NCBI GenBank assembly: GCA_017403825.1 | Contig: JAFRDO010000010.1 | Location: 20,401 to 84,400, forward strand | Source of the DNA: Kiritimatiellia bacterium | Lineage (GTDB): Bacteria > Verrucomicrobiota > Kiritimatiellia > RFP12 > UBA1067 | Direction of reading: 5' to 3' | DNA: 64,000 nt | Part shown: positions 20,052 through 49,152 of the stretch, piece by piece | How the letters are laid out: every line of letters begins with the position of its first letter | Position numbering within the stretch: position 1 is the stretch's first letter | Notes under the pieces: model-generated | What the model saw: the letters and a program-made list of their open reading frames with translations, nothing else | Database searches by the model: none | Told to the model about the DNA's origin: nothing | Translations under genes and position numbers: made by a program

Positions 20052-21118
20052 ACGTCGCAAACGGATGGTACCTCACCGGCTGGTGCGGGCAGTTCGAGAA
20101 AGGCTCGGTGTTCGTGCCGCGCAAAGGCGAGCCGTGGCTTCTCGGCGGACCGGAGTCGGAGCCGTTCGCGTTGCAGTCTTCGGCCGTTACGAAGATTCGC
20201 TGCTTCCCGGTGTTCATGGTGCCTGAGGAGGAGTACCCCAACGCGCACATCATCGGCTTTGCCGACCTCTACAAGGAGATGTCGGAGATGGGGCTGCCCT
20301 TGAAGCGCATCGGCGTCGTCGGCACGAACACGATTCCGCACCAGGTCTACCTCGATTTCCAGGCCGGCTTTGCGGGCGTGGAGCTCGTGGACATCACGGG
20401 CGACTACGAAGCCATGCGCGCCTACAAGAGCGACTGGGAGCGCGAGAACATGCTGAAGGCCGTCGGGCTCTGCGACCTCGCATACGATGCGATGAAGGCG
20501 AAGATCGTTCCAGGAGCGTTCGAGTATGAGGTCGCCGCCGCCGGAGAAGCGGTGTGCCGCGCGAATGGCGCGACGAACTTCGCGTACTCCACGATCGTCG
20601 GCTCCGGCGAGCGCGCCAACGCCGTCGTCCCGACGGCTACGAACCGCCAGATGCAGCCGGGCGAACTGGTCATGATAGGCATCGCGCCGCGCTTCAACGG
20701 CTACGCCGGAACGTTCGGCGACACGCTTCCCGTGAGCGGCGAGTACACCGCCGACCAGAAGGAGTGCATGAAGCATCTCCGCGAAGTGATGCACCTTACG
20801 AAGGCCATGCTGAAGCCGGGAGTGAGCGGCAAGGAGATCGACGTGCCGGGACGCGAATACTACAAGAAGCACGACCTCTTCAAGTACCTCGTCTGCCCGT
20901 TCGCGCACACGATCGGACTCATGGAGGCGGAACTTCCGTTCTACGGGCCGAACTCCGAGGACGTCCTCGCCCCCGGCATGACGGTGATGGTCGACGTGAG
21001 CTTCTTCGGGCACCCGAAGTTCAACGGCGCGCGCATCGAGACGGGCTACATCATCACCGACACCGGCTGCAAGCCGATGTCGCCGAAGATGGACGCTTAC
21101 TTCGCGCAGTCCCTGTAA
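19946..21118 (+). CDS. M24 family metallopeptidase (Xaa-Pro aminopeptidase / creatinase-like)
   Basis: A creatinase-like N-domain is followed by a pita-bread fold with metal-ligand-like blocks ('VMIGIAPRFNGYAG', 'HTIGLMEAE', 'VMVDVSF'). Confidence 0.8.
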   Translation: MSYYNKEESNKRIAAVQAILEKKNLDAALVYFDELNVANGWYLTGWCGQFEKGSVFVPRKGEPWLLGGPESEPFALQSSAVTKIRCFPVFMVPEEEYPNAHIIGFADLYKEMSEMGLPLKRIGVVGTNTIPHQVYLDFQAGFAGVELVDITGDYEAMRAYKSDWERENMLKAVGLCDLAYDAMKAKIVPGAFEYEVAAAGEAVCRANGATNFAYSTIVGSGERANAVVPTATNRQMQPGELVMIGIAPRFNGYAGTFGDTLPVSGEYTADQKECMKHLREVMHLTKAMLKPGVSGKEIDVPGREYYKKHDLFKYLVCPFAHTIGLMEAELPFYGPNSEDVLAPGMTVMVDVSFFGHPKFNGARIETGYIITDTGCKPMSPKMDAYFAQSL

Positions 21119-22803
21119 CGATCGACCTCGACGCTGAAGACAAGTTCGTGCGACTGGCCTGGGGCTAGCTCAAGCGCGCCTTCCTTCGTCCGGCAGCTCG
21201 GCCCCAGGCCGATGAAACGCTCGGTGTCGCCGGCGTCAAGGTTGCGGTTGTGCGGCTCGACATTCCCCGGCGACCACACGACGACGCCGGTGTTGCCGCT
21301 GGCGTGCATGCGCAGTTCACGCCCCGCCCCCGCATCGACAAGGGCGAAAGCGTCGCTGCGACGGGGGAACGCGGCGTCCATGCCGCCGACCGCCGCAAAG
21401 TCGTTCTCCTTCACTCCGCGCAGCGTCACCGCGCCATAGCGACTTACCGCAAAGTACGGCTGGATGCCCTCGGAAAACGAAAACGGACGGTCCCCCGTGT
21501 TCTTCGTGCGCATCGTCATTTCAAGGCGGCTTGTCATGCGCAAGGTCAGCTCAAGGTCGGCGGCATACGGGAAATCCGGATCCTCGCCGGCGGCAAGCGA
21601 GAGCCCCAACGTGACGGACGACCCTCCGGCCTCATTGGGATCGCGATGCCGCACGGCAAGTCTGCGGTTGCGGGCTAAGCCGTGGATTGAGCTGGCCTTG
21701 TCCCCCTTCTTGCCGAACCACGGCCAGCAAACCGATATCCCGCCATGAGACCAGTCGCCGTCGGCAGATTCGGTCCGCCGGGGCATGAAGAGCAGTTCCT
21801 CTCCGGCAGGAGTCTTCCACGAGAGAATGCGTCCGCCTTGAAGATCGATGACTGCACGCCCGCCAGGGCCGACGACATCAACCGTGCGGGACGGCGCTGT
21901 CGGCGACATTTTGACATCTCCGCAAAAGCCCATCTGCACGAGCCAGTCCCAGAGGAGCGGACGCCACGCGAGGAATTTTCCCATAATCGCGCCTTTGGAC
22001 TTGAAGTCATGGTCGCGCTTCGCGAACACGTGAAGGTCGCACGGAACGTGCATCGCGTGCAGCCGTGAATAGACCTTTACGCTCCCCATGGGCGAGATTA
22101 CATCGGCATCGCCGTGCATGAAGAACACGGGACATGTCGCAGAGTCAAACTTGAACTCGGGGAGTATGACATCCTCGGCGAGGTCGCCGCCATGGGTGTT
22201 CGCGCTGTTCACGCCGTCGGACAGCACATACGCCGGATACGCAGGCGCCGCAAAGGCGATATTGCAGGGCAGAGAGTCGATTTCATCGATAGGCTCGTAG
22301 GTGCCGGTCTGCGAGGAAAGCGCCATCAGAAGCGCAAGGTGTCCGGCGGCGGAATAGCCGAAGAAGCCGATCTTGTCCGGGCTGACACCGTGCGCCGCCG
22401 CGCCGTGGCGCACGAGCCGGACGGCCCTTTGCGCATCCTGCCATGCCGTGACGTGCTTCGCGACCTTCTTCGGGCGCGGCGTCCTGTGGTGCAGGCGCAC
22501 GACCGTCATCCCCTTCTCAAGCAGCCAGTCGCGGAATCCCCCTCCCATCGACCCATTCGGCACCCAGTTGCAGATGCCGTATCCTCCGCCGCACGTCACG
22601 ATCATCACGGCGTCGGTGGTCTTGTTGGAAGGCACGAACCACTCGATGAACGGCTCGTTGTACTGATTCTCCTCAAGGGACGGCACCTTGCCCTCCGGCC
22701 AGAGAGCTATGCGCTCGCCCTCCGGATCTCCCGCTAAAGGGTCCGTAGCAGCCATTGCACCCGCCGCGAACGACGCGACGACACAGGCCGAAACAAAACT
22801 CAT
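21097..22803 (-). CDS. Secreted bifunctional-looking protein: N-terminal alpha/beta-hydrolase esterase (GYSAAGH) fused to a C-terminal hexose-6-phosphate mutarotase / aldose-1-epimerase-like domain
   Basis: The start was chosen at the ATG at 22803, which has an AGAAGGG RBS and a clean signal peptide (MSFVSACVVASFAAGAMA); the ORF extends to 22833. The esterase GxSxG and an 'HGDAD' block are followed by a YeaD-like 'CWPWFG...HGLARN' motif. Confidence 0.65.
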   Translation of the reverse strand: MSFVSACVVASFAAGAMAATDPLAGDPEGERIALWPEGKVPSLEENQYNEPFIEWFVPSNKTTDAVMIVTCGGGYGICNWVPNGSMGGGFRDWLLEKGMTVVRLHHRTPRPKKVAKHVTAWQDAQRAVRLVRHGAAAHGVSPDKIGFFGYSAAGHLALLMALSSQTGTYEPIDEIDSLPCNIAFAAPAYPAYVLSDGVNSANTHGGDLAEDVILPEFKFDSATCPVFFMHGDADVISPMGSVKVYSRLHAMHVPCDLHVFAKRDHDFKSKGAIMGKFLAWRPLLWDWLVQMGFCGDVKMSPTAPSRTVDVVGPGGRAVIDLQGGRILSWKTPAGEELLFMPRRTESADGDWSHGGISVCWPWFGKKGDKASSIHGLARNRRLAVRHRDPNEAGGSSVTLGLSLAAGEDPDFPYAADLELTLRMTSRLEMTMRTKNTGDRPFSFSEGIQPYFAVSRYGAVTLRGVKENDFAAVGGMDAAFPRRSDAFALVDAGAGRELRMHASGNTGVVVWSPGNVEPHNRNLDAGDTERFIGLGPSCRTKEGALELAPGQSHELVFSVEVDRYRDCAK

Positions 22804-23245
22804 GCATGCCCTTCTTTCGATCATCATTGCCAACCCTTTCTTCTAGTTGTTGTCTACGGAGATTATAACACACTTCGCCGCATCATCGCGCAAAGAGAAT
22901 ATCATTCAAGAAACGAGACTATAGCGACTAACGGGACTTCCAAGACAATCGGGACTTCCGAGACTTGCCCGCCGAAGCCTTGGCGAAAGCGGGTCCCGTT
23001 TGTCCTGGCCGTCCCGAATGTCCCGAAAAGCTCGCATTTCTTGTCATGCGCATATTGTACCATTTTTCAGACGATTTACGGGCGCAACGAGCACATCTAC
23101 TCTTTTAGGCGTCACCGTGCAATGATTTTATTTGCATTTGCAAAATTTACAGTATGAGAGGCGGGTGATATTTGGTATCATATAACCATAAGAATGGACA
23201 TGCACTTATGAAAAACACGATGCAATCGGAAGGAGTCGGATTCCT

Positions 23246-26200
23246 GTGAAGAAACTGGCGGTAATGATGGCTGCGCTTGGCGCGCTAGCGGCGATTGCCG
23301 ACGGCGGTGGCGCCGCTGCAAAGGACAATGTGGAGCTGCTGCCTTCAGCCTTCGACGGCAAGACGCCTGTCGTCGTCGAGACCGATGCGTTCAGGCTCGT
23401 CATCAATCCAGATGCGACGGCGCAGTCGCTTGTCATCAAGGCGACAGGCGAGGAATGCCTGGCGTCCAAGGCGGGGCTGCCAGTGTTCGCATCCGTCCAG
23501 AAGCGTCCGTTCAACAACGAGACGCGCCTGGTGCAGATGGCCAAGCGCACGATGTACCCCGCCAACCGCATCAGGCGCGACGGCGACATCTTGCGCATCG
23601 GGTTCGACACCGCGCCCTACGAGGTGGAGGTACGCGTCCGGGAGCGGGCAGGCTACGCCGCGTTCGAGCTCGTGCGGCTGATCTCCAACACCGTGCAGGA
23701 GAAGCAGTACGGAGGACTGGAGCCGTGGCAGATGGACGTGCCGCCAGTCGAGGAGTTCAGGCTCCTCCAGCTGCCGGTCATCGAGCGCAAGAACTTCGGC
23801 GACTGGCTGAACGTGGAGTGGGACGACCGTGCGGCGGTGGCAGTGGTCGGTGCGACGCCCTACATGGACGTGGATCACGAGAAGCGCGGCGACTGGCGGC
23901 TGCTGCGTGCGGACGCGCTCTCCGGCATCGGCCACGGCATCACGAACGGCGTTGCGGCAATCGCCGCCGGAGCCAGCAAGGATGAGCTCCTCGCGCAGAT
24001 CGAGGCGATGGAGAACGACTATGACCTGCCGCGCGGTGTCGCAAGCCGCCGCAATCCCCTTCTCAACGCCTCCATCTACTGGACGAGCGACATCTCCGTA
24101 CACAACGTCGACGAGCATGTCGCCAACATGAAGAAGGGCGGCTTCCGCATGGCGCTCCTCTACTATTCCGGCATGTTCCTGAACGGACACGCCTACACGA
24201 ACTACGGTGACTACGATCTCAATCCCGAACGTTTCCCAAACGGCTACGACGACCTCAAGGTCGTTCTGGCGAAGATCAAGGCCGCCGGCGTCACGCCCGG
24301 CTTCCACACGCTCCAAACCTTCATCGGCTTCAAAAGCCGCTACGTGACGCCGGAAGCCGATCCGCGACTCAACGTGAAGCGGTATTTTGCACTGGAACGG
24401 CCCTTGCCTGGCGATGGCGCAACTTGCGACGTATATGTGGCGCAGAACCCGGTCGATGCGCCGATGCACCCGAAGTGCCGCGTACTCAAGTTCGGCACGG
24501 AGCTGATGCATTACGAAAGCTACACCACAACGCCTCCTTACAGGTTCACCGGCGTGGAACGCGGCTACTTAGGCACGACCGTCAAGTCGCACGGGCGCGG
24601 CGACGGCGGCGGCATCCTTGACGTGTGCGAATGCACGGCTACAAGCTGCTGCATCGACCAGAACACGTCCCTTCAGGACGAGATCGCCGAGAAGATCGCG
24701 AAGGTCTACGACTGCGGCATGGAGTTCCTCTACTTCGACGGCTCCGAGGACGTGAACGTGCCCTGCAACGTGAACATCTCCCTTTCGCAGTGGAAGGTTG
24801 CCAAACATTGCGGGAAGATGCCGCTTTTCACAGAAGGCTGCGCGAAGACGCACTTCGGCTGGCATCTCCAGAGCGGAGCGAACGCCTTTGACGTGTTCCC
24901 ACCGGAGGTGTTCAAGGAGAAAATCATCGAATATCCGTACAAGGCGGCGCAGCGTCTGGCGAAGGATTTTACTCGTGTCGATTTCGGGTGGTGGGGAATC
25001 CGCGCCAAGGGTCCGAAAAGCGTAGGCACGCAACCTGACATGTGGGAATACGGCACGTCCAAGGCGGCAGCGTTCGACTGTCCGGCGACGATGCAGATGA
25101 ACCTTCACCGCATCCATGCGAACGGACGCATGGACGATCTCTTCGAGACCGTACGACGCTGGGAGGACGTGCGTGCGCGGAAGTGGCTCACGCCGGAGCA
25201 GAAGGAAATGCTGAAGGATCCGAAGCGCGAGTTCCACCTCTACCTGAATGATAAGGGCCAATATGAACTGGTAGAATGGAATCAGCTTGACGTGGCCGGC
25301 GGCAAGTGGACGGACGTGCGGGCCTTCATTTTCGAGCGCAACGGACGACGCGTCGTCGCCTACTGGCATGTTCACGACCGCGCACGCCTCGTCTTCGCCG
25401 AGCCGCTGGACGGCACGGAGTTCCTCGATGCCTCCGGCGTGAAGTATTTCGAGACATCGCTTCCGGCCGAGACCGTCCGCGCCGCCTTCGCCTCCGCCGC
25501 GGTTCATGGAATTCCCACTGACCGACGCATCGAGATATACGGCTTTTTTGATGACAATGACGGACACATCCAGGGGATGTGCACCGACGGAGAATTCATC
25601 TACCTCACCCAACAGAGCTGGATATACAAAGTCGACCGCCAAGGCAAGCTGGTGCGCAAGATAAAGACGCCAAAGCACACCGGCGACGTCTGCTTTCACG
25701 ACGGGCGGATATACGCTTCGAGCATCCACTACTACGGCGAGTATCGCGGGCATGGCATCATAAGGGTTTATGACACCGACCTGAATCTCCTGAAGGAGAA
25801 GATGCTTGAGAAGTGCGGCCTTGACGGCATCACGTGGCTCGACGGCTACCTCTACGTCGGCGGCGGAGCGCACAAGCCGACCATCCCGCACAAGCCGGGA
25901 GAGGCGCCGGAAACGAAGACTCCTCACTTCGACAACAATCTGTTCAAGGTCGATCCGAACACGCTTGAAATCGTCGAGCGCTATGTGCTGAACCACGGCA
26001 CGAAGACATGCTATGGGATTCAGAACGCGACGACGGACGGAAAACTCCTCTACTTCTGCTACTACGTGCCCGGACGTAACATCCCCAACTGCATCGTCTA
26101 TGACAAGAACATGCACGTCGTGCGGACCCTGACGTTCGAGGCTGGCAAGGGCTCAGATTTCGGACAGGGCTTTGACTTCGTCGGCGCCGTCCCGGGCGGG

Positions 26201-28318
26201 AACAGATTCCTCCGCGTTACGACACAAAACGCATGGGTGAGGAACCGCAGGCCAGAGGATGTGTTCACCGCCATCGTGGAGACTGTTGAAATCAGAGATT
26301 CGGACGTGCCGCCGCGGCACGTCCCGAAGCGCATCATGGGCCGCGACTACTGGCCTGCCCTTTACAGGTACCGCGACTGGCTGCCAGACGCCAAATACGA
26401 CAACAGCGCCTTTGAGGTGCGGTTCGACAACCCCGACATCTTCAAGCTGCCCGCGTTCCGCGACGCGGTTCCCGTCTACTGGGCACGCAACGATCCGCCG
26501 CCAATTGATGGCGCAAGCGGCACGTGGCGGCGTTTTGCAGATAACTTCACGGCCACCGAACGTGATCGCGAGATCATCACCTCAAACCCCCTTCCTGACC
26601 GTCCGTTCCTTTTCGCGGCAACGGCCAAGCGTCAGTTCTGGACATGGGGCGCGGAATGCGACCTCGACTACGCCGACTTCGCCGACTGGCGGACGCGGCA
26701 TCCTAACGCCCTCTACAGCGGCACGATCCTCGAATGGGACAACGACCTGATGCTTGCCTACCGCCGCATGGCAAGCATGACAAACACGGCGCGCCGGGCG
26801 GAGGTCGAAGCGCTGATCGGAAAGAGCCCCCCGAAGACGCGCGAGGAGCGGATGGACGTGATGCGACGGCACTATGCCGACCGCCACAAGGCGGCTTACG
26901 GCGACAAGATGGCAGTACACGCCTCTCACGTGTTCAGCCAGCACTTCGGCGGCGACTGCGGCGCGGACATGCTTGTCGTCGAAACGACCAACTCGTCCGG
27001 CAGCCCGACCAGCGACTCCGAATACCGCTGGAACCTCGCCCCGATGTTCGTCCGCGGCGCAGCGCGTCAGTTCGACCGTCCGTGGGAATGGTACTGGGCC
27101 GCCTACATGAACGGCTTTCGCACGAACGGTGAATGGCACAATGACGCCGCCTGCAGATATCCCATAGGCCCATCCGCCAAGAATGGGTCCGGAGCAATCA
27201 ACCGTCCGGAATACGGCGTCTCCGGCAACCTGATGCGCCGTCTCTACTACTTCTCATACCTGAACGGCGCGAACATCACGCAGCCCGAGGAATGGTCCGC
27301 CTACTTCCTCACCTGGGACGATGCCGCGGGCAAGACCGTGCTTACCTGTCGCGGACGCGACTACGCGGCCTACCACGATTTCACCGTGAGGAATCCAGGA
27401 CGCGGCACGCCCTATACTCCTATCGCCATCTGCATTCCCCTTTCGCGCGGTTATACGGCCTTCGGAGGCTGGCCGTGGGCGGAAAAAGGTTATGGCTACA
27501 CGCGGAGCGACTTGATGTCAGATGCTGTGTTATTCTCGCTCGTCCCAGGCTTCGAGCGGGCAAAGGCGATGAAGGCTGGCGTCGAGACGAATCTTCACAA
27601 CTCGCGCTTCGCCCAGATGTACGACGTGATTTGTCCCGACGCGCCAAGCCAGTCGGCAGAGACGGCACTTGACGTGATGAAGAGCTACAAGGCCTTGATC
27701 ATAGCCGGCGAGTTCGCCGATCCCAAGGTCGCCCAATGTCTCGCCGAATACGAGAAGAGCGGCGGACGGGTAATTATGTTGTCGGATGACATTCTCCAAG
27801 ATCGGTCTGTTTTAACCACAGATTACACCAAAGACACGGAAAGACATAATGGAGGAAACAGCAATTCCGTGTGTTCCATGTCTTCCGTGGTAACACGGCA
27901 AATGAAAGCGGGGAAAGTGAGTTTCCCCAAGATCGAGTCGATTCTTGAAAACCTTCAGAAGGACTATTTCCCATTCAAGGTCGAAGGCGACTGCCTGTAC
28001 GGCGCAAACCGCACGGAGGGCGGATGGTGGCTGTGGGTGTTCAACAACAAGGGTATCACAAAGTTCACCGACGCACCGCATACCATTGACCATTCGTTCG
28101 ATGCCGACATTACGGTGTCATGCGCGAAAGACAGCATCACAACAGCAAAGGAACTGCTGGCGGAGAAGCCAGTGCCAATCGTGGAAGGCAAATTCAAGTA
28201 TCGCATAGCAGCAGGCGACCTCGCCGTATTCGAGGTGAACACCGCTACGCAAAACCGAATGTTCAGCGCAAAGGAACATGACCGCGAAGCCTACATTGTG
28301 CAGGTCAGACGGTTTTGA
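23246..28318 (+). CDS. Giant secreted multidomain protein (1690 aa): N-terminal module, uncharacterised TIM-barrel-like catalytic-type domain, embedded HxQGMC domain, and a large C-terminal uncharacterised region
   Basis: A GTG start follows a GGAAGGAG RBS and leads into a signal peptide. The frame is open and uninterrupted for 5 kb. An internal segment around 25525-26150 is homologous to the stand-alone HxQGMC proteins. A segment around 24100-25000 is homologous to the central domain of 28396..33825. Confidence 0.7.
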   Translation: MKKLAVMMAALGALAAIADGGGAAAKDNVELLPSAFDGKTPVVVETDAFRLVINPDATAQSLVIKATGEECLASKAGLPVFASVQKRPFNNETRLVQMAKRTMYPANRIRRDGDILRIGFDTAPYEVEVRVRERAGYAAFELVRLISNTVQEKQYGGLEPWQMDVPPVEEFRLLQLPVIERKNFGDWLNVEWDDRAAVAVVGATPYMDVDHEKRGDWRLLRADALSGIGHGITNGVAAIAAGASKDELLAQIEAMENDYDLPRGVASRRNPLLNASIYWTSDISVHNVDEHVANMKKGGFRMALLYYSGMFLNGHAYTNYGDYDLNPERFPNGYDDLKVVLAKIKAAGVTPGFHTLQTFIGFKSRYVTPEADPRLNVKRYFALERPLPGDGATCDVYVAQNPVDAPMHPKCRVLKFGTELMHYESYTTTPPYRFTGVERGYLGTTVKSHGRGDGGGILDVCECTATSCCIDQNTSLQDEIAEKIAKVYDCGMEFLYFDGSEDVNVPCNVNISLSQWKVAKHCGKMPLFTEGCAKTHFGWHLQSGANAFDVFPPEVFKEKIIEYPYKAAQRLAKDFTRVDFGWWGIRAKGPKSVGTQPDMWEYGTSKAAAFDCPATMQMNLHRIHANGRMDDLFETVRRWEDVRARKWLTPEQKEMLKDPKREFHLYLNDKGQYELVEWNQLDVAGGKWTDVRAFIFERNGRRVVAYWHVHDRARLVFAEPLDGTEFLDASGVKYFETSLPAETVRAAFASAAVHGIPTDRRIEIYGFFDDNDGHIQGMCTDGEFIYLTQQSWIYKVDRQGKLVRKIKTPKHTGDVCFHDGRIYASSIHYYGEYRGHGIIRVYDTDLNLLKEKMLEKCGLDGITWLDGYLYVGGGAHKPTIPHKPGEAPETKTPHFDNNLFKVDPNTLEIVERYVLNHGTKTCYGIQNATTDGKLLYFCYYVPGRNIPNCIVYDKNMHVVRTLTFEAGKGSDFGQGFDFVGAVPGGNRFLRVTTQNAWVRNRRPEDVFTAIVETVEIRDSDVPPRHVPKRIMGRDYWPALYRYRDWLPDAKYDNSAFEVRFDNPDIFKLPAFRDAVPVYWARNDPPPIDGASGTWRRFADNFTATERDREIITSNPLPDRPFLFAATAKRQFWTWGAECDLDYADFADWRTRHPNALYSGTILEWDNDLMLAYRRMASMTNTARRAEVEALIGKSPPKTREERMDVMRRHYADRHKAAYGDKMAVHASHVFSQHFGGDCGADMLVVETTNSSGSPTSDSEYRWNLAPMFVRGAARQFDRPWEWYWAAYMNGFRTNGEWHNDAACRYPIGPSAKNGSGAINRPEYGVSGNLMRRLYYFSYLNGANITQPEEWSAYFLTWDDAAGKTVLTCRGRDYAAYHDFTVRNPGRGTPYTPIAICIPLSRGYTAFGGWPWAEKGYGYTRSDLMSDAVLFSLVPGFERAKAMKAGVETNLHNSRFAQMYDVICPDAPSQSAETALDVMKSYKALIIAGEFADPKVAQCLAEYEKSGGRVIMLSDDILQDRSVLTTDYTKDTERHNGGNSNSVCSMSSVVTRQMKAGKVSFPKIESILENLQKDYFPFKVEGDCLYGANRTEGGWWLWVFNNKGITKFTDAPHTIDHSFDADITVSCAKDSITTAKELLAEKPVPIVEGKFKYRIAAGDLAVFEVNTATQNRMFSAKEHDREAYIVQVRRF

Positions 28319-28395
28319 TATACTTCGGCATAGATAATAACGATTGGACTTGTAAATTGAGAAGTGACGAACGAGGATTAACTCTTCGCCTTGCG

Positions 28396-31300
28396 ATGAG
28401 TCTTGCCTTGGCGGCTGGCCTCGTCAGCGGAGCGGAGGAGCTGCGCTTGCCAGGTGAAGACGGAACGCATGTGGCGGCCTCGTGCGCACCCTTTCCAGAC
28501 GCCCTGAGCGCGTTCGTCTGGCGCAACTGGCCGGTGGTGTCCGTCGCGCGCATGGCAAAGGCCGTCGGAGCGGAACCGTCCGCGCTGGAGGCGATAGCCC
28601 GTGAGATGTCGCTTCCCGTACCCCAGCCGCCAGTTTCGCCCCTCTGGCGACGCAAAGGCTACATCACGGTCGTCAAGCGCAATTGGCATCTCCTTCCGTA
28701 CGACCAGCTGCTGACGATGACGGACATGACGCGCAAGGAACTCGCCTACTCCCTCGTCGAGGACGACTTCCTGTTCAGCAAGCTCGGCAACACAAAGCCG
28801 CTCTGCGCACCGGTCGTCTGCACAGAGGAGACGGCGGCGAAAGGCCGTGCGCAGCGCCGCTGGATCGCAAAAACGCTGAAGGAAGAGGGAGTCGTGCCGA
28901 TGGCGCCGGAGGAACCGCGCTTCCGTTTCATCGAAGAGCTGTCGGCCATGCCGTCGCACGACGCACACCCGCCCGCCGCGCAGTCCTCGTTCGACCTGCG
29001 GCTCATCTTCTCGTACTTTGCGGACTACGGCGATCCTCTCGGCGACGATGCGGTCGGTTCGTATCCGGATGGGCTTCTCGCGCGTCTCGCCGACAGCGGC
29101 GTGAACGCCGTCTGGCTGCATACCGTGCTGTCGACGCTCGCCAAGGATCCGCTCTACCCAGAGTTTGGCGACGGCTCGGAGAGGCGCATCGCCAACCTGC
29201 GCACGCTCGTCGCACGGGCGGCGCGCCACGGCATCAAGGTGTATCTCTACGTGAACGAGCCGCGCGCGCAGGACGACGCCTTTTTCGAGAAACCTGGCCG
29301 TCTGGAGATGCGTGGCGCCAGGCGACAGTCGGGCGGAAGCGGCTACGCACGCTGCACGTCGCATCCAGAAACGCGCCGCTGGCTGCGCGACTCGCTGCGG
29401 CAGGTATTTTCGCAGGTACCGGGCCTGGGCGGCGTATTCACGATCACGATGAGTGAGAACCTCACCAACTGCGCCTCGCGGTGGAAACGCGAGACATGCC
29501 CGCGCTGCAAGGATCGAAGGGTCGGAGACATCGTGGCCGAGGTGAACCGCACCATCTGGGAGGGCGTGAAGGCTGGCGATCCGAATGCAGAGGTCATCGC
29601 ATGGGACTGGGCGTGGCCGAAGGACGAGCGCACGTCCATCGTCGCACAGCTGCCGGCCGGGTCGTGCCGAATCATGTCCGTAAGCGAGATAGGCATGCCT
29701 TTCGTGCGCGGCGGCGTCACGTCCGAAATCAACGAGTACTCCCTTTCGACGCCGGGACCGAGCGACCGTGCGAAGGCTATCTGGGCGGCGGCGAGCGCAC
29801 ACGGGATGAAGACGGCAGCGAAGGTGCAGGCCGCGCTCACCTGGGAAATGAGCGCCGTGCCATATCTGCCGGTCATGGATATCGTCTCCGAACACGCGCA
29901 CAACCTGATCGATAACGGCGTTGACGGCGTGATGCTCTCCTGGTCGCTAGGCTCCGCGCCGACGCCAAACCTTGCCGTCTACACAGACTGCCGCCGAGGC
30001 GAGGAGCCCGGCGCAGTGCTCGACCGCCTCGCGGAACGGCTCTACGGACGTACAGGAGTCGCAGCGGCACGGGCCGCGTGGACCGCCTATTCCGACGGCT
30101 TCCGGGAATACCCGTTCAACATATCGTCCGTCTACTGCGGAAACCACACGCTCGGACCTGCCAACCACCTTTATGCGGAGCCGTCCGGCTGGACGGCCTC
30201 GATGGTGGGCTATCCTTTCGACGACCTGAAACGGTGGCGGGCGATTTTCCCCGAAGACGTTTGGCTAACGCAGATGGCGAAGGTACGCGATGGGTTCAAG
30301 AAGGGAAATGCGGCGTTCGAGGGCCTCGTCGCGTCACTGACCGGCGAGCGGCGGACGGCAGCAGAACGCGAGCTTGGACTCTTCCGCGCGATCGAAAACC
30401 ATTTCTGCGCCGTTGTCGACCAGGGGATGTTCGTGATGGCGCGCGAAAAAGGCAACAAGGCCGAGATGATCGCCTGCGCCCGCCGCGAACTTGAAACGGC
30501 ACGGAAGCATCTCGACCTAGTGCGCGCCGACAGCCGCATAGGATACGAATGCTCCAACCACTACTTCTACATTCCGCAAGACATCATCGAGAAGATGCTG
30601 AACTGCCGAGATGCCATTGCCAGGCTTACCGGAAACACAGGTACGGACACGCCAATCGCGGCGACGTGGTCTACGGACGACTTCGACCTTTCGCTCGCAA
30701 CCAACGGTTGCCTTGTATCCCTGAAGGAAAAGGAGACAGGGCGCGAACTCCTGCGCTGGAAGGGAAAGTTCGCCTCTGTCGTGGCCCAGGACGGCCGGGA
30801 GACGAAGGTCTCTTCTGTAAGCCGCGACGACGACGGACGGTTACACCTCTCCTTCGACGGCATGGACGGCGAGGCGGTGATGTCCGTCCGCGCCACGCAT
30901 TGGGGACTCGTCTTCACTGCGGAACGCCTGACCGTGCCGGACGCAAAAGAGTTCAAGTTCCTTATCGTCTATCCCGTCTGCCGGACGTACAACGGCTCGA
31001 TGATGAACGCCATGAGCGACGACGAATCGGCCGTCGTGCTGCGCACCTACGAGCTCGCGGCGGACATGCGCAACCGCGGCAACACAGTGCTGGAGGCCGT
31101 GGCGGAGGTCGCGGCGCATCCGCCGGCCCTGCCGTCGCGCGCCGCGCTAGTCGCCGCGCCACGTCGGCAAGTCCTCTTACGGATGAAGGAACTGACGCGC
31201 GATGCCGGAATCCTGTCGTCGCCCTGCGGCGGCGCATGGAGCCTGGAGGCTCCGGAGAACCGCGAGTCATACATCATCGGCAGCGTATCGCGGGAGTCCG

Positions 31301-33825
31301 CCGAGGACTGGATCGCTCTCGCCGAACGCGGCGGCTTCCGGACGGTCAGCTTCTACGACTGGTGGAAGACGCTCGGACACTACGACGCCGAGCCTAAGAA
31401 GTTCCCGCGCGGCGATGACGACATATGCGAGACGATTGCCATGCTCCATGCGGCCGGTCTCAAGGCCGGGATGCACACGCTGACTGCGGGTATCGACTTC
31501 CAAGACGCCTGGACGCGCCCCGTCTGCCATGCTGACCTGCTCGTAACCCACGCCTACACGCTCGCCAGGCCGTTCTCTGACGGCGACACGGAGATGGTCG
31601 TGAACGAGGCGCCGGGTCCGCGCCACCATCTCGTGACTTCATTCCTCTCGAACGGCAACATCCTGCGCGTCGGAGGGGAACTTTTCACTTACGCCGGGAT
31701 TCGCGGCGACGCCGCGCCGTATGCGTTCACGGGCGTGAAGCGCGGGGCCTATGGCACGACAAGGGGCAGCAACATTCCCGCCGGTACGCGCGTGGAGTAT
31801 CTCTTCCAGCACTTCTACTCGTTCTTCCCGGAGCCGTCGTCGCCGTTCATGGACACTATGGCCGCGCACCTCGCCGCGCGCTACCGGCAGCTCGGCTTCG
31901 ACTTCGTATACCACGATGGCGCGGAGCCGATGAGTCGCTACAACGTGGATCTGACGCGGCGGAAGTTCGCCGCCGCAATCGACCAGTCAGAACGTCCGCT
32001 GCAGGTGGAGGCAAGCGTCGGCGGCGCGCACAGCTGGTGGTTCCATTCGCGTCTCGGCGCCTGGGATCATCCGCGCTGGGCGCTCAAGAGCTTCCACGAC
32101 CGCCACCTCGCGTACTGCCGCGACCAGGTCGTCAAGGCAGAAATGCTTGCGCCTCAGGTCGGCTGGTGGTCGGTGATGAAAGCTGACGGTTCGGTGCGCG
32201 GAAGCTTCACGGACGAGTCGGAATACTTCGCCTCTCGGAACGCTGGCGAGGACTTCGCGATGTCGCTGACCGGGGTGAACGTGTCCAAGGGGCCGCTTGC
32301 GTTCTCGGTGGAGCGGCAGACCACGATAATCGGACGCTACGAACGTTTCCGCCTCGCCCGGGCGTTCACTGCCGAGGCGATGGAGCGGATGCGTCAGCCG
32401 GGCGCGGAGTTCAGGCTCGCACAGGGCGCGGACGGAATCTGGACGCTGACACCCGCCGCCGTTGCAACGCACCGGGCGACGGCAGACTTCCGCCTCTGGT
32501 CGTTTGATGCACCCCAAGCCGGAAAAAGCGCACTGCGAGTCGAGGCGCTGTACAAAGCGGGCGATGAGGGCGAAACGCTTATCGGACCGCTCGATGCGGC
32601 CAACCTCAAGACGTCTGCGGCGGAGAAGGTGTCGGTTGCGGTAACGACGGCGCACGACACGGAAATGGGCGACGTGCTCGTTTTACGGGCGGAGAACCAT
32701 GGTGATGCACGGCGCGGCGCATGGGGCGGCGCTGGGCTCGCCTACGGCCATCCCTACCGCAACGTTACTGGCGGACGGCAGGACATGGGGAAGGCGTTCG
32801 GTTTCTGGGTTAAGGGCGACGGTTCGGGTGCCGTGCTCGACTTCCGAATCACGTCGCCGCGCATACATAACGCCGGGCAGTCCGATCACTTCGTGACACT
32901 GGACTTCACAGGCTGGCGGCGTGTGAACGTGCTGTTGCGCGAACGCGACGCCGCGCGTCATGCTTCGCTCGCCTGGCCGGGGCAACGCACCGGGCACAGC
33001 ATACTGTACATGACCTACAGAGACCTTGTGACCCCGGAGCGTATAGAGAAGATCGAATTCTTCCTGAACGAGATTCCAATCAACAGCGTTGCAGAGGCCG
33101 TAATCGCGCCCGTCCGGGCTATGTCGACCGCGAAAGGACGCGTGGACGCGGCAACTGTCGTCGTGAACGGCATCCGCCATGCTGTGCCATTCGCCTTGGA
33201 GTCCGGGGAGTACGCGGAACTGGAAAAGGACGTGTGGACGCGCTATTCGGAGGCTGGAGAGCCGATGGAGGAATCTGCGGGTGCGGAACCGGTTGCACTC
33301 GCTGCCGGAGCAAACGAATGCCGGTTCGAAGCAGCGGACGCAGGGGCCCGGACGGAAGTGACCCTTGTCGCACTCGGACGCCCGTTCTCCGCGCTGAAGC
33401 CGCTTGACTCTTTGCCGGCTGCAGATCGAAAGACCCTCGACTACGAGGCACTCGATCCCATCGTGTATTGTCCGGCGAAAGGATTGGCGCGTCCGTTCGG
33501 GATCGCGGCGAGGCCCGGCGAAACGGCACGACTCGAGGTAGAAATCCTAGGACCGGTGAAGACACCGGCGCTGGAGTTCCGTGTGCGCGGCGCGGAGACG
33601 AAAGTATGCTCGTTCATAACGGATCTGGAAGCGAACGAAAAACTCATCTGCCGCAATGGCAAGGAGTGGAAGGTTGTAAAGGACTTCAAGACGGTACGCG
33701 TCGGCACGTTGGAAAAACCGATTCCAGAAGTATCGGGATTCGTCGGCGTGCGCGTGCGGAGTGCCAATCCGTCGTCGGCACACGCACGCGTAAACCTCGT
33801 GAAGCGCTATGACAGAGGCAATTGA
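28396..33825 (+). CDS. Giant secreted multidomain protein (~1810 aa): N-terminal TIM-barrel hydrolase-like domain ('YVNEP', CPRC) plus a central domain homologous to the giant protein 23246..28318
   Basis: The start was chosen at the ATG at 28396, giving MSLALAAGLVSG. A TTG at 28357 would give a more canonical signal peptide, and the annotated ORF begins at 28315. The frame is open for 5.4 kb. The shared block 'PY.FTGV.RG.YGTT ... F.YHDGAEP' matches the upstream giant protein. Confidence 0.7.
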   Translation: MSLALAAGLVSGAEELRLPGEDGTHVAASCAPFPDALSAFVWRNWPVVSVARMAKAVGAEPSALEAIAREMSLPVPQPPVSPLWRRKGYITVVKRNWHLLPYDQLLTMTDMTRKELAYSLVEDDFLFSKLGNTKPLCAPVVCTEETAAKGRAQRRWIAKTLKEEGVVPMAPEEPRFRFIEELSAMPSHDAHPPAAQSSFDLRLIFSYFADYGDPLGDDAVGSYPDGLLARLADSGVNAVWLHTVLSTLAKDPLYPEFGDGSERRIANLRTLVARAARHGIKVYLYVNEPRAQDDAFFEKPGRLEMRGARRQSGGSGYARCTSHPETRRWLRDSLRQVFSQVPGLGGVFTITMSENLTNCASRWKRETCPRCKDRRVGDIVAEVNRTIWEGVKAGDPNAEVIAWDWAWPKDERTSIVAQLPAGSCRIMSVSEIGMPFVRGGVTSEINEYSLSTPGPSDRAKAIWAAASAHGMKTAAKVQAALTWEMSAVPYLPVMDIVSEHAHNLIDNGVDGVMLSWSLGSAPTPNLAVYTDCRRGEEPGAVLDRLAERLYGRTGVAAARAAWTAYSDGFREYPFNISSVYCGNHTLGPANHLYAEPSGWTASMVGYPFDDLKRWRAIFPEDVWLTQMAKVRDGFKKGNAAFEGLVASLTGERRTAAERELGLFRAIENHFCAVVDQGMFVMAREKGNKAEMIACARRELETARKHLDLVRADSRIGYECSNHYFYIPQDIIEKMLNCRDAIARLTGNTGTDTPIAATWSTDDFDLSLATNGCLVSLKEKETGRELLRWKGKFASVVAQDGRETKVSSVSRDDDGRLHLSFDGMDGEAVMSVRATHWGLVFTAERLTVPDAKEFKFLIVYPVCRTYNGSMMNAMSDDESAVVLRTYELAADMRNRGNTVLEAVAEVAAHPPALPSRAALVAAPRRQVLLRMKELTRDAGILSSPCGGAWSLEAPENRESYIIGSVSRESAEDWIALAERGGFRTVSFYDWWKTLGHYDAEPKKFPRGDDDICETIAMLHAAGLKAGMHTLTAGIDFQDAWTRPVCHADLLVTHAYTLARPFSDGDTEMVVNEAPGPRHHLVTSFLSNGNILRVGGELFTYAGIRGDAAPYAFTGVKRGAYGTTRGSNIPAGTRVEYLFQHFYSFFPEPSSPFMDTMAAHLAARYRQLGFDFVYHDGAEPMSRYNVDLTRRKFAAAIDQSERPLQVEASVGGAHSWWFHSRLGAWDHPRWALKSFHDRHLAYCRDQVVKAEMLAPQVGWWSVMKADGSVRGSFTDESEYFASRNAGEDFAMSLTGVNVSKGPLAFSVERQTTIIGRYERFRLARAFTAEAMERMRQPGAEFRLAQGADGIWTLTPAAVATHRATADFRLWSFDAPQAGKSALRVEALYKAGDEGETLIGPLDAANLKTSAAEKVSVAVTTAHDTEMGDVLVLRAENHGDARRGAWGGAGLAYGHPYRNVTGGRQDMGKAFGFWVKGDGSGAVLDFRITSPRIHNAGQSDHFVTLDFTGWRRVNVLLRERDAARHASLAWPGQRTGHSILYMTYRDLVTPERIEKIEFFLNEIPINSVAEAVIAPVRAMSTAKGRVDAATVVVNGIRHAVPFALESGEYAELEKDVWTRYSEAGEPMEESAGAEPVALAAGANECRFEAADAGARTEVTLVALGRPFSALKPLDSLPAADRKTLDYEALDPIVYCPAKGLARPFGIAARPGETARLEVEILGPVKTPALEFRVRGAETKVCSFITDLEANEKLICRNGKEWKVVKDFKTVRVGTLEKPIPEVSGFVGVRVRSANPSSAHARVNLVKRYDRGN

Positions 33826-33869
33826 CTAGTTCTCCAGCTCAATATAACTCGCATAAAAGGAACATATCA

Positions 33870-36800
33870 ATGACAAAGTTGAAGATTTCAATAATTTGCT
33901 TGCTTTTTGCGATTTGGGGACAGTCCCCACAAGTTTGGGGACAGTCCCCGGCTGAGACCACGGCAGCGGTTTGGGGACAGTCCCCAACGGCGGTGGCGCA
34001 GGCGGAGTTTGAGAAGTATTACTTGGCGGTGACGGGCAAGGCCGCGCCGCAGGATGCCGTGACATTCGCCATTGACCCCGCCATGTCAAAGACCGGCAAG
34101 GACGCATATTCAATCGTGTCCTGCGGCAAAGGCGTGAAAATCACGGGCTCGAACGTGCGGAGCGTTCTCTATGGCGTGTACGACCTTCTGGAAAAGCGGG
34201 CTGGGTGCCATTGGTTCTGGGATGGCGACATCGTGCCGAAACGCGAGACTATCAACCTCTCTGGCCTGGACATCCATGAGGAGGCGCACTTTGAGTACCG
34301 GGGGCTCCGCTACTTCGCGCATCGGGGCCTTACGCGCTTTCAGGCCGAGCACTGGGGATTCGAGGACTGGAAGAAAGAAATCGACTGGATGCTCAAGCGG
34401 CGGCTGAACGTGTTCATGCTTCGCATCGGGCAAGATGACCTTTTCCAACGGACCTTTCCGGACATCTGTGGCTATCCCGATCCGTCCAAGGACCTTCCCG
34501 GTGCTGGGGAAGGCTACGACAACCGCACGCTATTCTGGAGCCTCCAATACCGAGGCGAACTGCGTCGGCGCATCCAAGCGTATGCGTTCGAGCGGGGGCT
34601 GATGGCGCCGGAAGACTTCGGCACGATGACGCACTGGTATTCGCGCACGCCTGAGGATTTCCTGGAGACGATGAATCCGCCGTTCCTGCCGCAGTCGACA
34701 AGCGGCTATGCGGAGCGGAACGGACTTGTCTGGGACGTTCGCGAAGATAAATGGGCGGACGAATACTGGAAGCTCACGAAGACTGCCGTGGATGCGTACG
34801 GGAAAGGCGCTCCGCAACGGCTTCTGCACACGATTGGCCTTGGCGAGCGCCGCTGCTACACTAACCGTCAGGACAACTTCAATCTCAAGGTCGAAGTCCT
34901 GGACAAGTTCCTAGCCCGCGCGCACCGCGACTATCCGGACGCCAAGGTTCTGCTCGCCGGCTGGGACTTCTACTTCACTTGGTTTCCCGAAGAAGTGCGT
35001 GCGCTCGTTGGACGGCTAGACCCTAAACGCGACATCATCTGGGACTACGAGGGCGATGCCACGCGCGACTGGCGCAAGGAGATGCAAGGACTCAACAACA
35101 ACTTCACCAAGTGGGGAGTCGTCGGGAAGTTCCCCTACACCTATTCCATCTTCCTTGCCTACGAATCGGCCCTTGACACGCGCGCGAACTATCCGCTAAT
35201 CGAGGAGCGGCAGAAGATAGTCCAGAACGACCCGGCTTGCGTCGGCTACGTCTTCTGGCCCGAGGCAAGCCATACCGATACGTTGTGCCTCAGGTACTTC
35301 ACTGCAAACGCATGGGCCAACGAGGCGGTGCCGCACGGAAAGGTTCTGGACGAATTCTGCGCAAGCCGCTACGGCGCCCTTGCCGGGCAGATGAAGGCAA
35401 TTTGGGAAAAGGCGTTGCCAGCATCGATGCTGCGCGACTGGGACGCGAACTACGGGAGGCTGATCACTGGAAGCGGCGAAAGCCTTCCGCCGTGCGACGA
35501 GAAGACACTGGCGGCGTGGAAGCAACCGGTCGAAGTCGCCAGGACAGTATTCGGGGAACTTGCCGACATTCCGTGGGCGGATGACTTTCTCCGGCGCGAC
35601 ACCATTGACATCGCCCGCATGGTGCTTGACCGCGTCATTACGTTGCGAACGTTCGAGTTGAGCCGGGACGTCGCCGCGTGGCGAGACGGTATGGACGCAC
35701 AGGCCAATTCCCTCCCTGAGAGGGCGAAGAGCCTCGCCGCGCTCTGCGACAAGATGGCCGATCTTTTGGAACTGCACACCGACTATTCGCTCTGGGAATC
35801 GTATCTTCGCCTTGATGCGGTGGAGAAAGTGCGCAATCCCGACTTCCCGAAGACGCTCCTCGACAACGCCTCCTGCAGCTACTGCCGCAGCCACCAGTAC
35901 GAACTGGCGCGGCACTGGTATGCGCCGCGCATGGAGAAGATGGCGTTGCGCCTAGCGGACGCCATTGCCTCCGGAGACCGCAACGTCAAGCTGTTTGACG
36001 ATCGCAACGCGGAGCGCCGCGCGCTCCTGGCCCGTCCGCTGGAGTCGCTCAAGCCAGTGCAGCCGCGCACGTGGGACCGCTATCGCGAGACCCTGCGCAC
36101 AATCGGCACGCAAGTTTCCGCTCCCGACGCGCTCCATGCGCGAACGACGCGCCTGCACGAGGGCATCCCATCCGTCGAGGTGTCGCCTAAGAACGGACGC
36201 ATCTGGGTGACATGGTACGGAAGCCCTACTGGCGGCGAAGACTCAAACAACTATGCCGTCCTGGCCACGAGCGCTGACGGCGGCGACACGTGGAAAGAGG
36301 TCGCCGTTGCGGATCCGGACGGCGACGGGCCTGTCCGCGCGTTCGATCCTGAGATATGGATTTCGCCTGACGGGAAACTCCGCTGGTTCTGGACGGAACG
36401 CGTTGCGCCGCTTGCGGCAGAAGCGAAGAACCGCAATGCCGGCTGCCTTGCCTCCCCCACGAACGATGTCCTGATGATGGCGGTCTTCAACAATGCCGAA
36501 GACGAACCCGATCCAAAACATCTGCCGGTCTCAAGGAAGATAGCGAGAGGCATAATGATGACCAAGCCGATCGTCTCACCGGACGGCGATTGGCTGTTCC
36601 CGATCGCCAACTGGTTCGAGGCTCCTTCTGGCAACGTCTGGGCCTCGTCCGATCGCGGCGGCACTTTGCGACTTGTCGGAGGCGTGACGCTGCCGAAAAA
36701 CGAACGCCTGTTTGACGAACACAACATCTATTTCACGAAAAGCGGAAAGCTTGCCTGCTGGTCGCGCACCAGGACAGGATGGATGCATGCATTTTCGACG

Positions 36801-37187: not shown

Positions 37188-37301
37188 CGCTTAGGCGGAT
37201 GTTGGCGGAAAGATAACATTTATTTGGCTGTTTGGGTATTCCATTTCATGCCGCAATATTCTATAATTCCCCTGTCTGTTCAAATGGAGGACTGAGGATA
37301 C

Positions 37302-38054
37302 ATGAACCTGAAGAAAATGAACAAGGGACTCGACTTCCTGCGGGAGAAGTACGGAGCTAAAAAAGGAGAGATCGCGATCAGGGGCGGGCACTGCTTCGTC
37401 GGAACGACTCCCCTTCTGCCCGGGCGCATGGAGAGGAAGATCGTGGAACTGAAGAAGATGACGGAGAACGGGACGCTCGAGGGCGTCTCCACTCTACGCT
37501 TCGCGAGCTTCGCGTCAAGAGGATCGGACGTCGAGGCGATGCTCGCCAAGGAGCTTGACCTTGCGGCGTATCTCGGCGCGTCGGACATCGTGCGCGTGAT
37601 GGCCGTTGCCAGCGGAAGCGCAATCAACGTGCTCGCAAAGCTCGCGAACGACGTGAACGTCTCGGTGGAGATCGGCGCCGGACTGCCGAAGGGAGAAATC
37701 GGTTACGACCGCCATGAGATCATCGCGAAGCGCGGCGTCGCCTGCGACCAGACTGTCGATACACACACGAAACACGAGTCCATCCGCTGCTGGGGCGCAA
37801 AAGGCATGGCGGAATACACAGATGTCGATACCGAGCTCTTCGGGCTGACATACGAGGAAACGTGGAACGTCCGCGCCGCGTTCGCGCTGCTGCAGGGGCG
37901 GGCGGACGCCAAGGTCTGGAAGGCGGCGTGGGCGAAGGCGACGAAGGCCGCCGCGCTCGCGTTCGCGGCGGACAGGGCGAAGGCCGCGAAGGCCATCGCC
38001 GACAAGAAGGGAATCGACACGAACCAGTCAATCAAAGTCGCTGAGGTGAGATAA
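37302..38054 (+). CDS. Hypothetical protein with a possible degenerate Rossmann-like N-terminus, cotranscribed with the oxidoreductase
   Basis: TATAAT lies at 37262-37267 and a GGAGGA RBS precedes the ATG. There is no recognisable family. The Ala/Lys-rich C-terminal tail is low-complexity. Confidence 0.45.
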   Translation: MNLKKMNKGLDFLREKYGAKKGEIAIRGGHCFVGTTPLLPGRMERKIVELKKMTENGTLEGVSTLRFASFASRGSDVEAMLAKELDLAAYLGASDIVRVMAVASGSAINVLAKLANDVNVSVEIGAGLPKGEIGYDRHEIIAKRGVACDQTVDTHTKHESIRCWGAKGMAEYTDVDTELFGLTYEETWNVRAAFALLQGRADAKVWKAAWAKATKAAALAFAADRAKAAKAIADKKGIDTNQSIKVAEVR

Positions 38055-38059
38055 TTGCC

Positions 38060-39139: not shown

Positions 39140-39190
39140 CCGGGAAAGAGGCTGCATTTGCATGCCGTTCATGAGCCGAAGGAACACGGA

Positions 39191-42269: not shown

Positions 42270-42272
42270 ATC

Positions 42273-46727: not shown

Positions 46728-46758
46728 AACAGAGGAGACGGCAAAACTGCCAGCAGCT

Positions 46759-46881: not shown

Positions 46882-46991
46882 TCTCATGGCCAATTTCAAA
46901 TGTCAGGCGGCTTTGGCACGCTATGTGCTAGCATATTCACGTGGACGGCAGATGCGATAACCGCGTCCCTCCCTGAAAGGAAAACGAAAAA

Positions 46992-49112: not shown

Positions 49113-49152
49113 TGGCTGACGGCTTCGCCTGCCGCAGCGGTTCCGCACGACC

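Follow-up and report, generated by a model that had tools for sequence, protein, structure and literature searches.

The locus examined here raises the question of what kind of domain is shared by two very large, adjacent genes in a 64,000-nucleotide stretch of DNA from a Kiritimatiellia bacterium (GenBank assembly GCA_017403825.1, contig JAFRDO010000010.1, forward-strand positions 20,401 to 84,400; the whole stretch is referred to below as the window, and positions are those of the window). An initial annotation had described tandem giant proteins of 1,690 and ~1,810 amino acids with a common catalytic-type domain that could not be assigned to a glycoside hydrolase (GH), polysaccharide lyase, or carbohydrate esterase family. 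Both open reading frames (ORFs) are indeed present, uninterrupted, on the forward strand: ORF A (positions 23246 to 28318) encodes 1,690 amino acids and ORF B (positions 28396 to 33825) encodes 1,809. We consider it probable, by analogy with enzymes of similar fold, that the shared module belongs to an unclassified GH-type family distant from GH36, GH31, GH129, and GH101 and acts as a retaining alpha-glycosidase, with D498 of ORF A as the nucleophile and D549 as the general acid/base.

The architectures of ORFs A and B are not assembly artifacts, because exactly the same ORF A protein was found on two independent ENA metagenome contigs and an orthologue (P0316) is 93% identical over its full length (1,668 amino acids). 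The neighbors of ORF A are the same on the ENA contigs, where ORF B was also called as a protein of 1,809 amino acids; a TTG farther upstream, at position 28315, is an alternative ORF B start that would give 1,836 amino acids. From the N terminus, ORF A comprises a signal-peptide-like segment, the shared module, a Kelch-like insert, and a C-terminal domain designated A_C. ORF B comprises a divergent GH20-like domain designated B_N, the shared module, and a beta-sandwich/CBM11-like C terminus.

Two giant proteins share a three-domain module

A BLASTP comparison paired residues 26 to 676 of ORF A with residues 738 to 1352 of ORF B (24% identity over ~650 amino acids; E = 2e-33). The similarity reflects homology rather than composition, because a search of 5.8 billion sequences with the ORF B module recovered A-type proteins at E = 1e-30. 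The three motif pairs quoted in the initial annotation all lie within the BLASTP alignment where it had placed them, the first being the motif of a beta insertion described below. However, whereas that annotation was correct that a segment is shared, its estimate of ~290 amino acids was too short; the shared unit is a complete three-domain module of ~650 to 730 amino acids. Copy A (positions 23303 to 25510; ORF A residues ~20 to 755) has an N-terminal beta-sandwich, a (beta/alpha)8 barrel, and a C-terminal beta-sandwich. Copy B occupies positions 30607 to 32451 as delimited by the BLASTP alignment, and its span was put at ORF B residues ~738 to 1400 (positions 30607 to 32595); the profile match continues to approximately residue 1665, taking in a C-terminal extension typical of B-type proteins. 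A and B represent paralogous subfamilies, and at 24% identity they probably differ in specificity.

Homologue searches indicated that elsewhere the module is normally a free-standing protein. Among 884 matches to the A-type module, the best 120 were nearly all 700 to 810 amino acids long, and those of the 120 with names were all annotated as "hypothetical protein" from Kiritimatiellae metagenome-assembled genomes (MAGs). The 53 B-type matches (~930 to 1,070 amino acids) have the module followed by a C-terminal extension that adds ~300 to 450 amino acids, and they came from Kiritimatiellae, Verrucomicrobia, Pirellulales, Armatimonadetes, and Desantisbacteria. Wherever a source name was given among ~170 A- and B-type homologues, it was "hypothetical protein." A profile built from both types matched 3,711 cluster representatives (50% identity) at E ≤ 1e-3, with 1,325 at E ≤ 1e-30. 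Most members of this large family are free-standing hypothetical proteins of 750 to 1,070 amino acids, from Kiritimatiellae, Lentisphaerae, Clostridia, and Bacteroidales of gut and rumen. When GTDB species genomes were scanned with an alignment of A-type sequences, 217 relatives were found in Kiritimatiellae, Lentisphaeraceae, many Clostridia, and Bacteroidales, nearly all of them in MAGs from gut, rumen, or digester. The closest (86% identity) is in Kiritimatiellae RGIG5820 from sheep ileum, a genome with at least three paralogues.

Reference collections gave no name for this family. No Pfam family (2025 copy) matched ORF A, or the module region of ORF B, at E ≤ 0.1; nor did Pfam match the module region of any of 35 sampled family members. 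NCBIfam release 20 (June 2026) had no match to either ORF, sequence searches of the PDB with the whole of ORF A and ORF B returned no match, and full-text literature searches yielded no description of the shared-module family.

The predicted fold resembles that of GH36, GH129, GH101, and GH31 enzymes

The initial annotation had proposed structure prediction followed by a fold search, and this approach did reveal a (beta/alpha)8 barrel. An AlphaFold2 model of ORF A residues 20 to 760, made from a 35-sequence alignment, had a predicted local distance difference test score (pLDDT) of 88.3 and a predicted template modeling score of 0.86. In model numbering, to which 19 is added to obtain ORF A numbering, the model consists of a beta-sandwich (residues 23 to 223), a (beta/alpha)8 barrel (residues ~258 to 640), and a C-terminal beta-sandwich (residues 643 to 736), with a seven- to eight-stranded beta insertion (residues 358 to 451) between strand 3 and helix 3. 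From the secondary structure of the model, the predicted barrel of copy A is encoded at positions 24074 to 25222 (ORF A residues 277 to 659) and the insertion, which bears the motif GxELxxY...PYxFTGVxRGxxGT, at positions 24374 to 24655 (ORF A residues 377 to 470). The order of beta-sandwich, (beta/alpha)8 barrel, and beta-sandwich in the model is that of clan GH-D, GH101, and GH129 enzymes.

The top 50 Foldseek matches to the model were all GH36, GH129, GH101, or GH31 enzymes, near full length, with E values of 4e-17 to 2e-12, and these four families ranked ahead of every GH13 entry. Further fold neighbors included the GH31 transglucosylase 5i23, the alpha-1,4-glucan lyase 2x2h, the GH36-type raffinose-family transferase 7exf, and GH13 transferases. 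When the family profile was compared with the PDB by sequence, the matches were below threshold (E = 0.002 to 0.14) and comprised the GH36 chains 2xn0 (E = 0.002), 8x1b/9awt (E = 0.007), and 3mi6, plus 6lcj. They were confined to ~50 to 90 residues of barrel strands 1 to 3, the stretch with the consensus ...GDY..n..FPNG...l...ihaaG.k.G.h. In hhalign comparisons, the Escherichia coli GH31 enzyme YicI fell on the same stretch, with a probability of only 4 to 9% that is credible for strands 1 to 3 alone, and a forced global alignment of the family to YicI was meaningless beyond these strands. The profile matches on strands 1 to 3 provide support for placement among alpha-glycosidases that is independent of the model. 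The module thus modeled has a GH36/GH31/GH129/GH101-like alpha-glycosidase architecture and would form a distant new family within a known superfamily. The earlier statement that the shared domain is not assignable to a family therefore holds with respect to Pfam and NCBIfam, but the predicted fold does place the module near these four families.

The resemblance to GH36 alpha-galactosidases and alpha-galactosaminidases (AgaA, 4fnp/4fnr; LaMel36A, 2xn0; FpGalNase, 8x1b/9awt) extends to the order of the three domains, to a similar size (~700 to 750 amino acids), to the weak but repeated profile similarity on strands 1 to 3, and to an Asp directly after strand 4. The module nevertheless differs from GH36 in its sequence (8 to 11% identity, with no Melibiase/GH36 Pfam match) and in the ~95-amino-acid beta insertion after strand 3, which carries its most conserved motif. 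No true GH36 gene was found in 1.27 Mb of retrieved loci. GH31 (E. coli/Klebsiella YicI alpha-xylosidase and alpha-glucosidase, 8t7z) is 12% identical to the module, which has no Glyco_hydro_31 Pfam match, and the YicI catalytic motifs KTD416FGE and WGGD482 could not be confidently aligned with it.

GH129 (the alpha-N-acetylgalactosaminidase NagBb, 5wzn; ZgGH129, 5opq) and GH101 (endo-alpha-N-acetylgalactosaminidase, 2zxq and 5a55) enzymes matched the module over the full length in Foldseek (E = 7e-15 to 2e-13) at 8 to 10% identity. Enzymes of these two families cleave alpha-glycosidic bonds with retention, have mucin-type or algal glycans as substrates, and use an Asp nucleophile located after strand 4. 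Mucin-type substrates would fit the GH89, GH20, and GH109 neighbors of the module. The module has neither the domain B/C arrangement typical of GH13 (clan GH-H) nor any detected counterpart of the four regions conserved in that family.

Invariant residues and a candidate active site

In order to evaluate conservation, 310 full-length module sequences were aligned to the family hidden Markov model (HMM); residues are given in ORF A numbering, with ORF B equivalents after a slash. Five positions were invariant in all 310 sequences: R439/R1116 in the beta insertion after strand 3, D498/D1174 directly after barrel strand 4, D549/D1224 in the loop after strand 5, and the pair G581-W582. The initial annotation had named a compositional artifact lacking conserved acidic residues as an outcome that would overturn its proposal; the invariance of D498 and D549 shows that this is not so. 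Nearly as conserved were E419, also in the insertion (309 sequences), Y496 (308), W539 (307), E601 after strand 6 (304), H354 (303), and D598, likewise after strand 6 (295, with Glu in 13 more). E530, at the end of strand 5 and 32 residues beyond D498, was present in 279 sequences (90%) and replaced by Gln in 16. Conservation across the family is highest in the motif E419...Y423...P431..F434-T-G..R439-G...T444, within the insertion after strand 3, which on the model may cap the substrate pocket.

In the alpha-amylase/alpha-galactosidase superfamily, the nucleophile follows strand 4 in GH13, GH27, GH31, GH36, GH101, and GH129. The model places D498 (model residue 479) immediately after strand 4 (model residues 475 to 478), the position expected of such a nucleophile. 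Its codon, within LYFDGSE, is at positions 24737 to 24739, and that of the ORF B equivalent D1174, within VYHDGAE, is at positions 31915 to 31917. The candidate general acid/base D549 (ANAFD) is encoded at positions 24890 to 24892 and its equivalent D1224 (LGAWD) at positions 32065 to 32067; all four codons were checked.

The assignment of the acid/base is less straightforward. This residue is an Asp after strand 6 in clan GH-D (GH27, GH31, and GH36) and a Glu ~30 to 45 residues past the nucleophile in GH101 and GH129. D549 is the preferred candidate because it is invariant. Alternative candidates suggested by the model are E530, with its GH101-like spacing, and D598 or E601, at the GH-D position after strand 6. 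In GH101 the acid/base Glu is 32 residues past the nucleophile (mutants D764N and E796Q), whereas the Glu at this distance in the module, E530, is only 90% conserved. The spacing of D498 and D549 is 51 residues, compared to 70 for D478 and D548 of AgaA, the mutants named in the structure matches; the AgaA pair follows strands 4 and 6, as established for clan GH-D.

Proposed function of the module and alternatives

By analogy with its structural neighbors, the module would cleave an alpha-linked sugar through double displacement, with retention of configuration. The nucleophile would be the invariant Asp after strand 4 (D498 in ORF A, D1174 in ORF B) and the general acid/base the second invariant Asp (D549 and D1224, respectively), with R439 and E419 brought to the substrate pocket by the family-specific beta insertion. 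ORFs A and B would be co-transcribed with the downstream gene for a GH89-BNR enzyme and with sugar-catabolic genes, and their products might be exported multidomain enzymes that dismantle a complex glycan, probably host derived and rich in N-acetylhexosamine (HexNAc).

Several observations weigh against this proposal. Neither Pfam nor NCBIfam has a family HMM that matches the module, and its identity to solved enzymes (2026 PDB copy) is 7 to 13%. The DDGW sugar-binding motif of GH36 is absent, the vlDDGWf of 2xn0 facing the family consensus ilfyyw in the HMMER alignment. D549 follows strand 5, whereas the acid/base of GH27, GH31, and GH36 follows strand 6, and both D498 and D549 were placed by strand order in the model rather than by superposition on known catalytic residues. 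Furthermore, Pfam tallies of 204 neighboring ORFs from 43 loci around family members revealed no recurrent partner.

It is also conceivable that the module belongs to an established CAZy family, such as a recent GH family that has no Pfam model or solved structure. Many recent GH families lack a Pfam entry, and the shared-module family is large and widespread among gut bacteria, so a member may already have been characterized. However, this seems unlikely given the lack of any Pfam or NCBIfam match, the ≤13% identity to PDB entries, the uniform annotation of homologues as hypothetical proteins, and the silence of the literature searched. Still less probable is a module of the same fold with nonhydrolytic chemistry. 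GH31, GH36, and GH13 include transglycosylases, glycoside phosphorylases, and enzymes resembling alpha-glucan lyase, any of which the module could be, and 5i23, 2x2h, 7exf, and the GH13 transferases are among its fold neighbors. However, the best Foldseek matches are hydrolases, no sequence sign specific to lyase or phosphorylase chemistry was seen, and the signal-peptide-like N termini and the location in a catabolic block with exo-glycosidases also argue for hydrolysis.

A catalytically dead scaffold or carbohydrate-binding unit that targets the GH20-like, A_C, and GH89 domains to their substrate would account for the absence of the typical GH36 substrate-binding motifs and for the fusion of every copy in the window to further putative catalytic domains. 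It is very improbable nonetheless, as most family members are the module alone, free-standing, and all 310 aligned sequences retain the same two Asp and one Arg at predicted barrel-pocket positions, a pattern typical of active enzymes rather than of decayed pseudoenzymes. An active retaining alpha-glycosidase thus remains the preferred interpretation. A bolder version of it, which we hold more tentatively, is that the module founds a new GH family that comprises several thousand sequence clusters from anaerobes of gut and rumen and whose specificity lies outside those of GH27, GH31, GH36, GH101, and GH129, e.g., for an alpha-linked amino sugar or another host-glycan cap. In that version A_C and the Ser-Glu GH20-like barrel of ORF B would be two more unclassified catalytic domains, and the operon would bring together three unknown enzyme families in shuffled fusions.

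What appears new here is a large family that has no model, structure, or characterized member, that is set apart by its insertion and its candidate active-site signature, and that is accompanied by two further dark domains, A_C and the Ser-Glu GH20-like barrel. If active, the module would represent a large and now invisible addition to the enzymes with which gut and rumen bacteria degrade glycans. Kiritimatiellae genomes have several paralogues each. As the family has no Pfam, NCBIfam, or PDB representative, standard metagenome CAZyme profiling presumably misses it. Its alternative fusions (GH89, GH20-like, and GH123) provide hints as to which linkages are processed together. Neither the fold nor the likely mechanism is unconventional, so the gain would lie in a new family, perhaps with a new specificity, rather than in a new principle.

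Other domains of ORF A

The N terminus of ORF A, MKKLAVMMAALGALAAIA, is a plausible signal peptide; that of ORF B, judged by sequence only, is less clear in this respect. A promoter-like site 5' of ORF A (positions 23154 to 23181) is a consensus match only, and the scan for promoters and terminators was uninformative.

The initial annotation had noted an HxQGMC domain in ORF A. The domain is present, and its identity can be refined to a Kelch-like beta-propeller (positions 25508 to 26290; residues 755 to 1015; HIQGMC, HTGDVC, and DGITWLDG) that is inserted into ORF A relative to its closest relatives. In these relatives (L003, P0317 to P0320, P0013, and P0003), the counterpart of residue ~760 is joined directly to that of residues ~1010 to 1020. 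Three free-standing paralogues of ~290 to 350 amino acids, each with a signal peptide, are encoded in the window at positions 8861 to 9754 (forward strand) and at positions 55132 to 56184 and 56200 to 57072 (both reverse strand), at 33 to 37% identity. A profile of the four members matched the designed Kelch protein 7on6 in the PDB (E = 1.7e-11, in three repeated stretches) and, at E values of ~0.03 to 0.07, Keap1/KLHL proteins; Pfam gave no Kelch or other match to any of the four. The motifs GH(V/I/L)QGMC, H(T/G)GD(I/V)C, DGIT(C/W)LDG, and QN..TDG are invariant among them, and their conserved Cys and His residues point to a possible metal site or disulfide.

A_C, the C-terminal domain of ORF A (positions 26273 to 28315; residues 1010 to 1690; ~650 amino acids), had no Pfam match and no significant PDB match with a profile, and hhalign found no match to it among 81 neighbor ORFs. 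An AlphaFold2 model of A_C from a shallow alignment was unusable (pLDDT, 42.8). A_C homologues were sought with a concatenated query (ORF A residues 755 to 1690 plus ORF B residues 17 to 745), and all 13 matches were to the ORF A part; the same query gave no match to B_N despite an 81%-identical B_N in L001, and the concatenation probably cost sensitivity. A_C is fused to an A-type module in P0316 to P0320. In the metagenomic proteins P0321 to P0326, it instead follows a GH123 catalytic domain (PF13320; E = 5e-15), which is of the beta-N-acetylgalactosaminidase type and takes the place of the A-type module. A_C is also encoded nearby in L004 and L005.

Other domains of ORF B

The N-terminal region of ORF B had been described as a TIM barrel with the motifs YVNEP and CPRC. 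Both motifs are present in B_N (positions 28444 to 30630; residues 17 to 745), YVNEP at residue 285 and CPRC at residue 368, together with MSEN. However, the reading of YVNEP as the NEP of a clan GH-A enzyme was rejected, as the NE varies among B_N relatives and the stretch pairs with the strand-3 segment of GH20 in the hhalign alignment. In hhalign comparisons, the B_N profile matched a Pfam-confirmed GH20 ORF of L066 over the strand-3 to strand-4 region (probability, 93.7%; E = 1.8e-7) and the two GH20 genes of the window (E = 1.3e-4 and 5.8e-3). The Pfam Glyco_hydro_20 model did not match ORF B, a search of the PDB with the B_N profile returned nothing significant, and B_N showed no similarity to the GH89 domain of the downstream ORF C.

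In GH20 enzymes the catalytic Asp positions the acetamido group of the substrate. The Asp-Glu pair that follows strand 4 in GH20 (H-x-G-x-D-E) is absent from B_N, where there is a Ser-Glu instead: the catalytic HDE of GH20 pairs with the MSE of ORF B (S353-E354; positions 29452 to 29457), and the consensus of B_N relatives is SE. From its sequence, B_N appears to be a divergent GH20-like domain in which the acetamido-positioning Asp is missing.

The motifs C..HP and CPRCKD are common to B_N, the L066 GH20 ORF, and the two GH20 genes of the window. The CPRC of ORF B is at positions 29497 to 29508, and the longer pattern C...CPRCKD is common to a GH20 subgroup that includes the window genes at positions 2334 to 3896 and 9785 to 11332; it may form a small metal-binding loop.

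The C-terminal region of ORF B (positions 32452 to 33822; residues 1353 to 1809) is a conserved extension of B-type proteins, with homologous C termini in 182 family proteins. Residues 1466 to 1515 (positions 32791 to 32940) resemble CBM_11 (Pfam E = 1.8e-5, below the curated cutoff), a family matched by 8 of the 35 sampled members.

Genomic context and domain shuffling

A GH89 gene directly downstream, within a co-directional catabolic block, had also been predicted, and both features were found. ORF C (positions 33822 to 37187, forward strand; 1,121 amino acids), the start of which overlaps the ORF B stop by 4 nucleotides, encodes a GH89-like protein with a NAGLU_N domain, a NAGLU barrel, and a C-terminal BNR/sialidase-like propeller. 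Pfam matched NAGLU at E = 6.7e-10 (38.9 bits; cutoff, 25.5), covering the barrel model only in part, NAGLU_N at E = 2.6e-6 (27.6 bits, just under the cutoff of 28.3), and BNR_2. ORF C thus has both the NAGLU N-terminal and TIM-barrel domains by which GH89 is recognized. On the same strand, positions 37302 to 40758 encode a 250-amino-acid protein of unknown function, a GFO/IDH/MocA oxidoreductase, a SIS_2 isomerase-like protein, and a PfkB sugar kinase. From ORF A to the kinase gene (positions 23246 to 40758), all genes are co-directional, with gaps of -4 to 115 nucleotides. Upstream of ORF A are the two GH20 genes, another SIS_2 gene, and genes for an alpha/beta-hydrolase, an AraC/periplasmic-binding regulator, and M81 and M24 peptidases.

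This gene context is suggestive of the breakdown of a HexNAc-rich glycoconjugate, and the amino-sugar-containing glycan substrate that the initial annotation had put forward is likewise a contextual proposal. Fusion partners and neighbors of the module include the glycosidase families GH89, GH20-like, GH123 (via A_C), GH20, GH109, GH29, and GH42, along with SASA. Across the 43 loci, the neighbors comprised AraC regulators, DUF4838, FGE-sulfatase, GH29, GH42, GH3, GH32, GH20, SASA, and M24. Because these neighbors are heterogeneous, any inference of the substrate is weak, and guilt by association was rejected as a basis for naming it, as no neighbor was consistent.

The same domains are combined differently in relatives. 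On a related contig (L001; 81 to 83% identity), the order is an A-type module alone (732 amino acids), a GH89-B_N fusion, an unknown protein of 1,228 amino acids, and a free-standing B-type protein. The fusion (L001 positions 3413 to 7903; 1,496 amino acids) joins the GH89 part of ORF C to B_N, the counterparts of window positions 33822 to 36100 and 28444 to 30630, respectively. In L002 a B-type protein stands alone and adjoins a GH109-type gene. The giant proteins of the window therefore represent one arrangement among several in which the same glycan-processing modules occur. Such permutation between relatives suggests that the modules act on one substrate class and that covalent linkage between them is not needed.

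Several other genes in the window are of note. Divergent from ORF A, the reverse-strand gene at positions 21097 to 22833 encodes an unusual fusion of an esterase (BD-FAE/Abhydrolase_3) with an aldose 1-epimerase, and this fusion gene adjoins ORF A on the ENA contig as well. The glycan cluster is unusually rich in dark proteins; ORFs with no Pfam match, all on the forward strand, are located at positions 6377 to 8818 (813 amino acids), 16466 to 18499 (677), 12542 to 13645 (367), 13659 to 14657 (332), and 37302 to 38054 (250).

Following the glycan cluster, positions 40713 to 55132 contain a nitrogen and nucleotide metabolism block with genes for GMP synthase, the glutamate synthase large subunit (1,484 amino acids), type III glutamine synthetase, a GltD-like oxidoreductase, the carbamoyl-phosphate synthase small chain, and CTP synthase. 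A 1,078-amino-acid secretin of the type II/III secretion kind, with Pfam Secretin and three Secretin_N stretches, is encoded on the reverse strand at positions 59132 to 62368. It is possible that this secretin provides an export route for the giant glycosidases.

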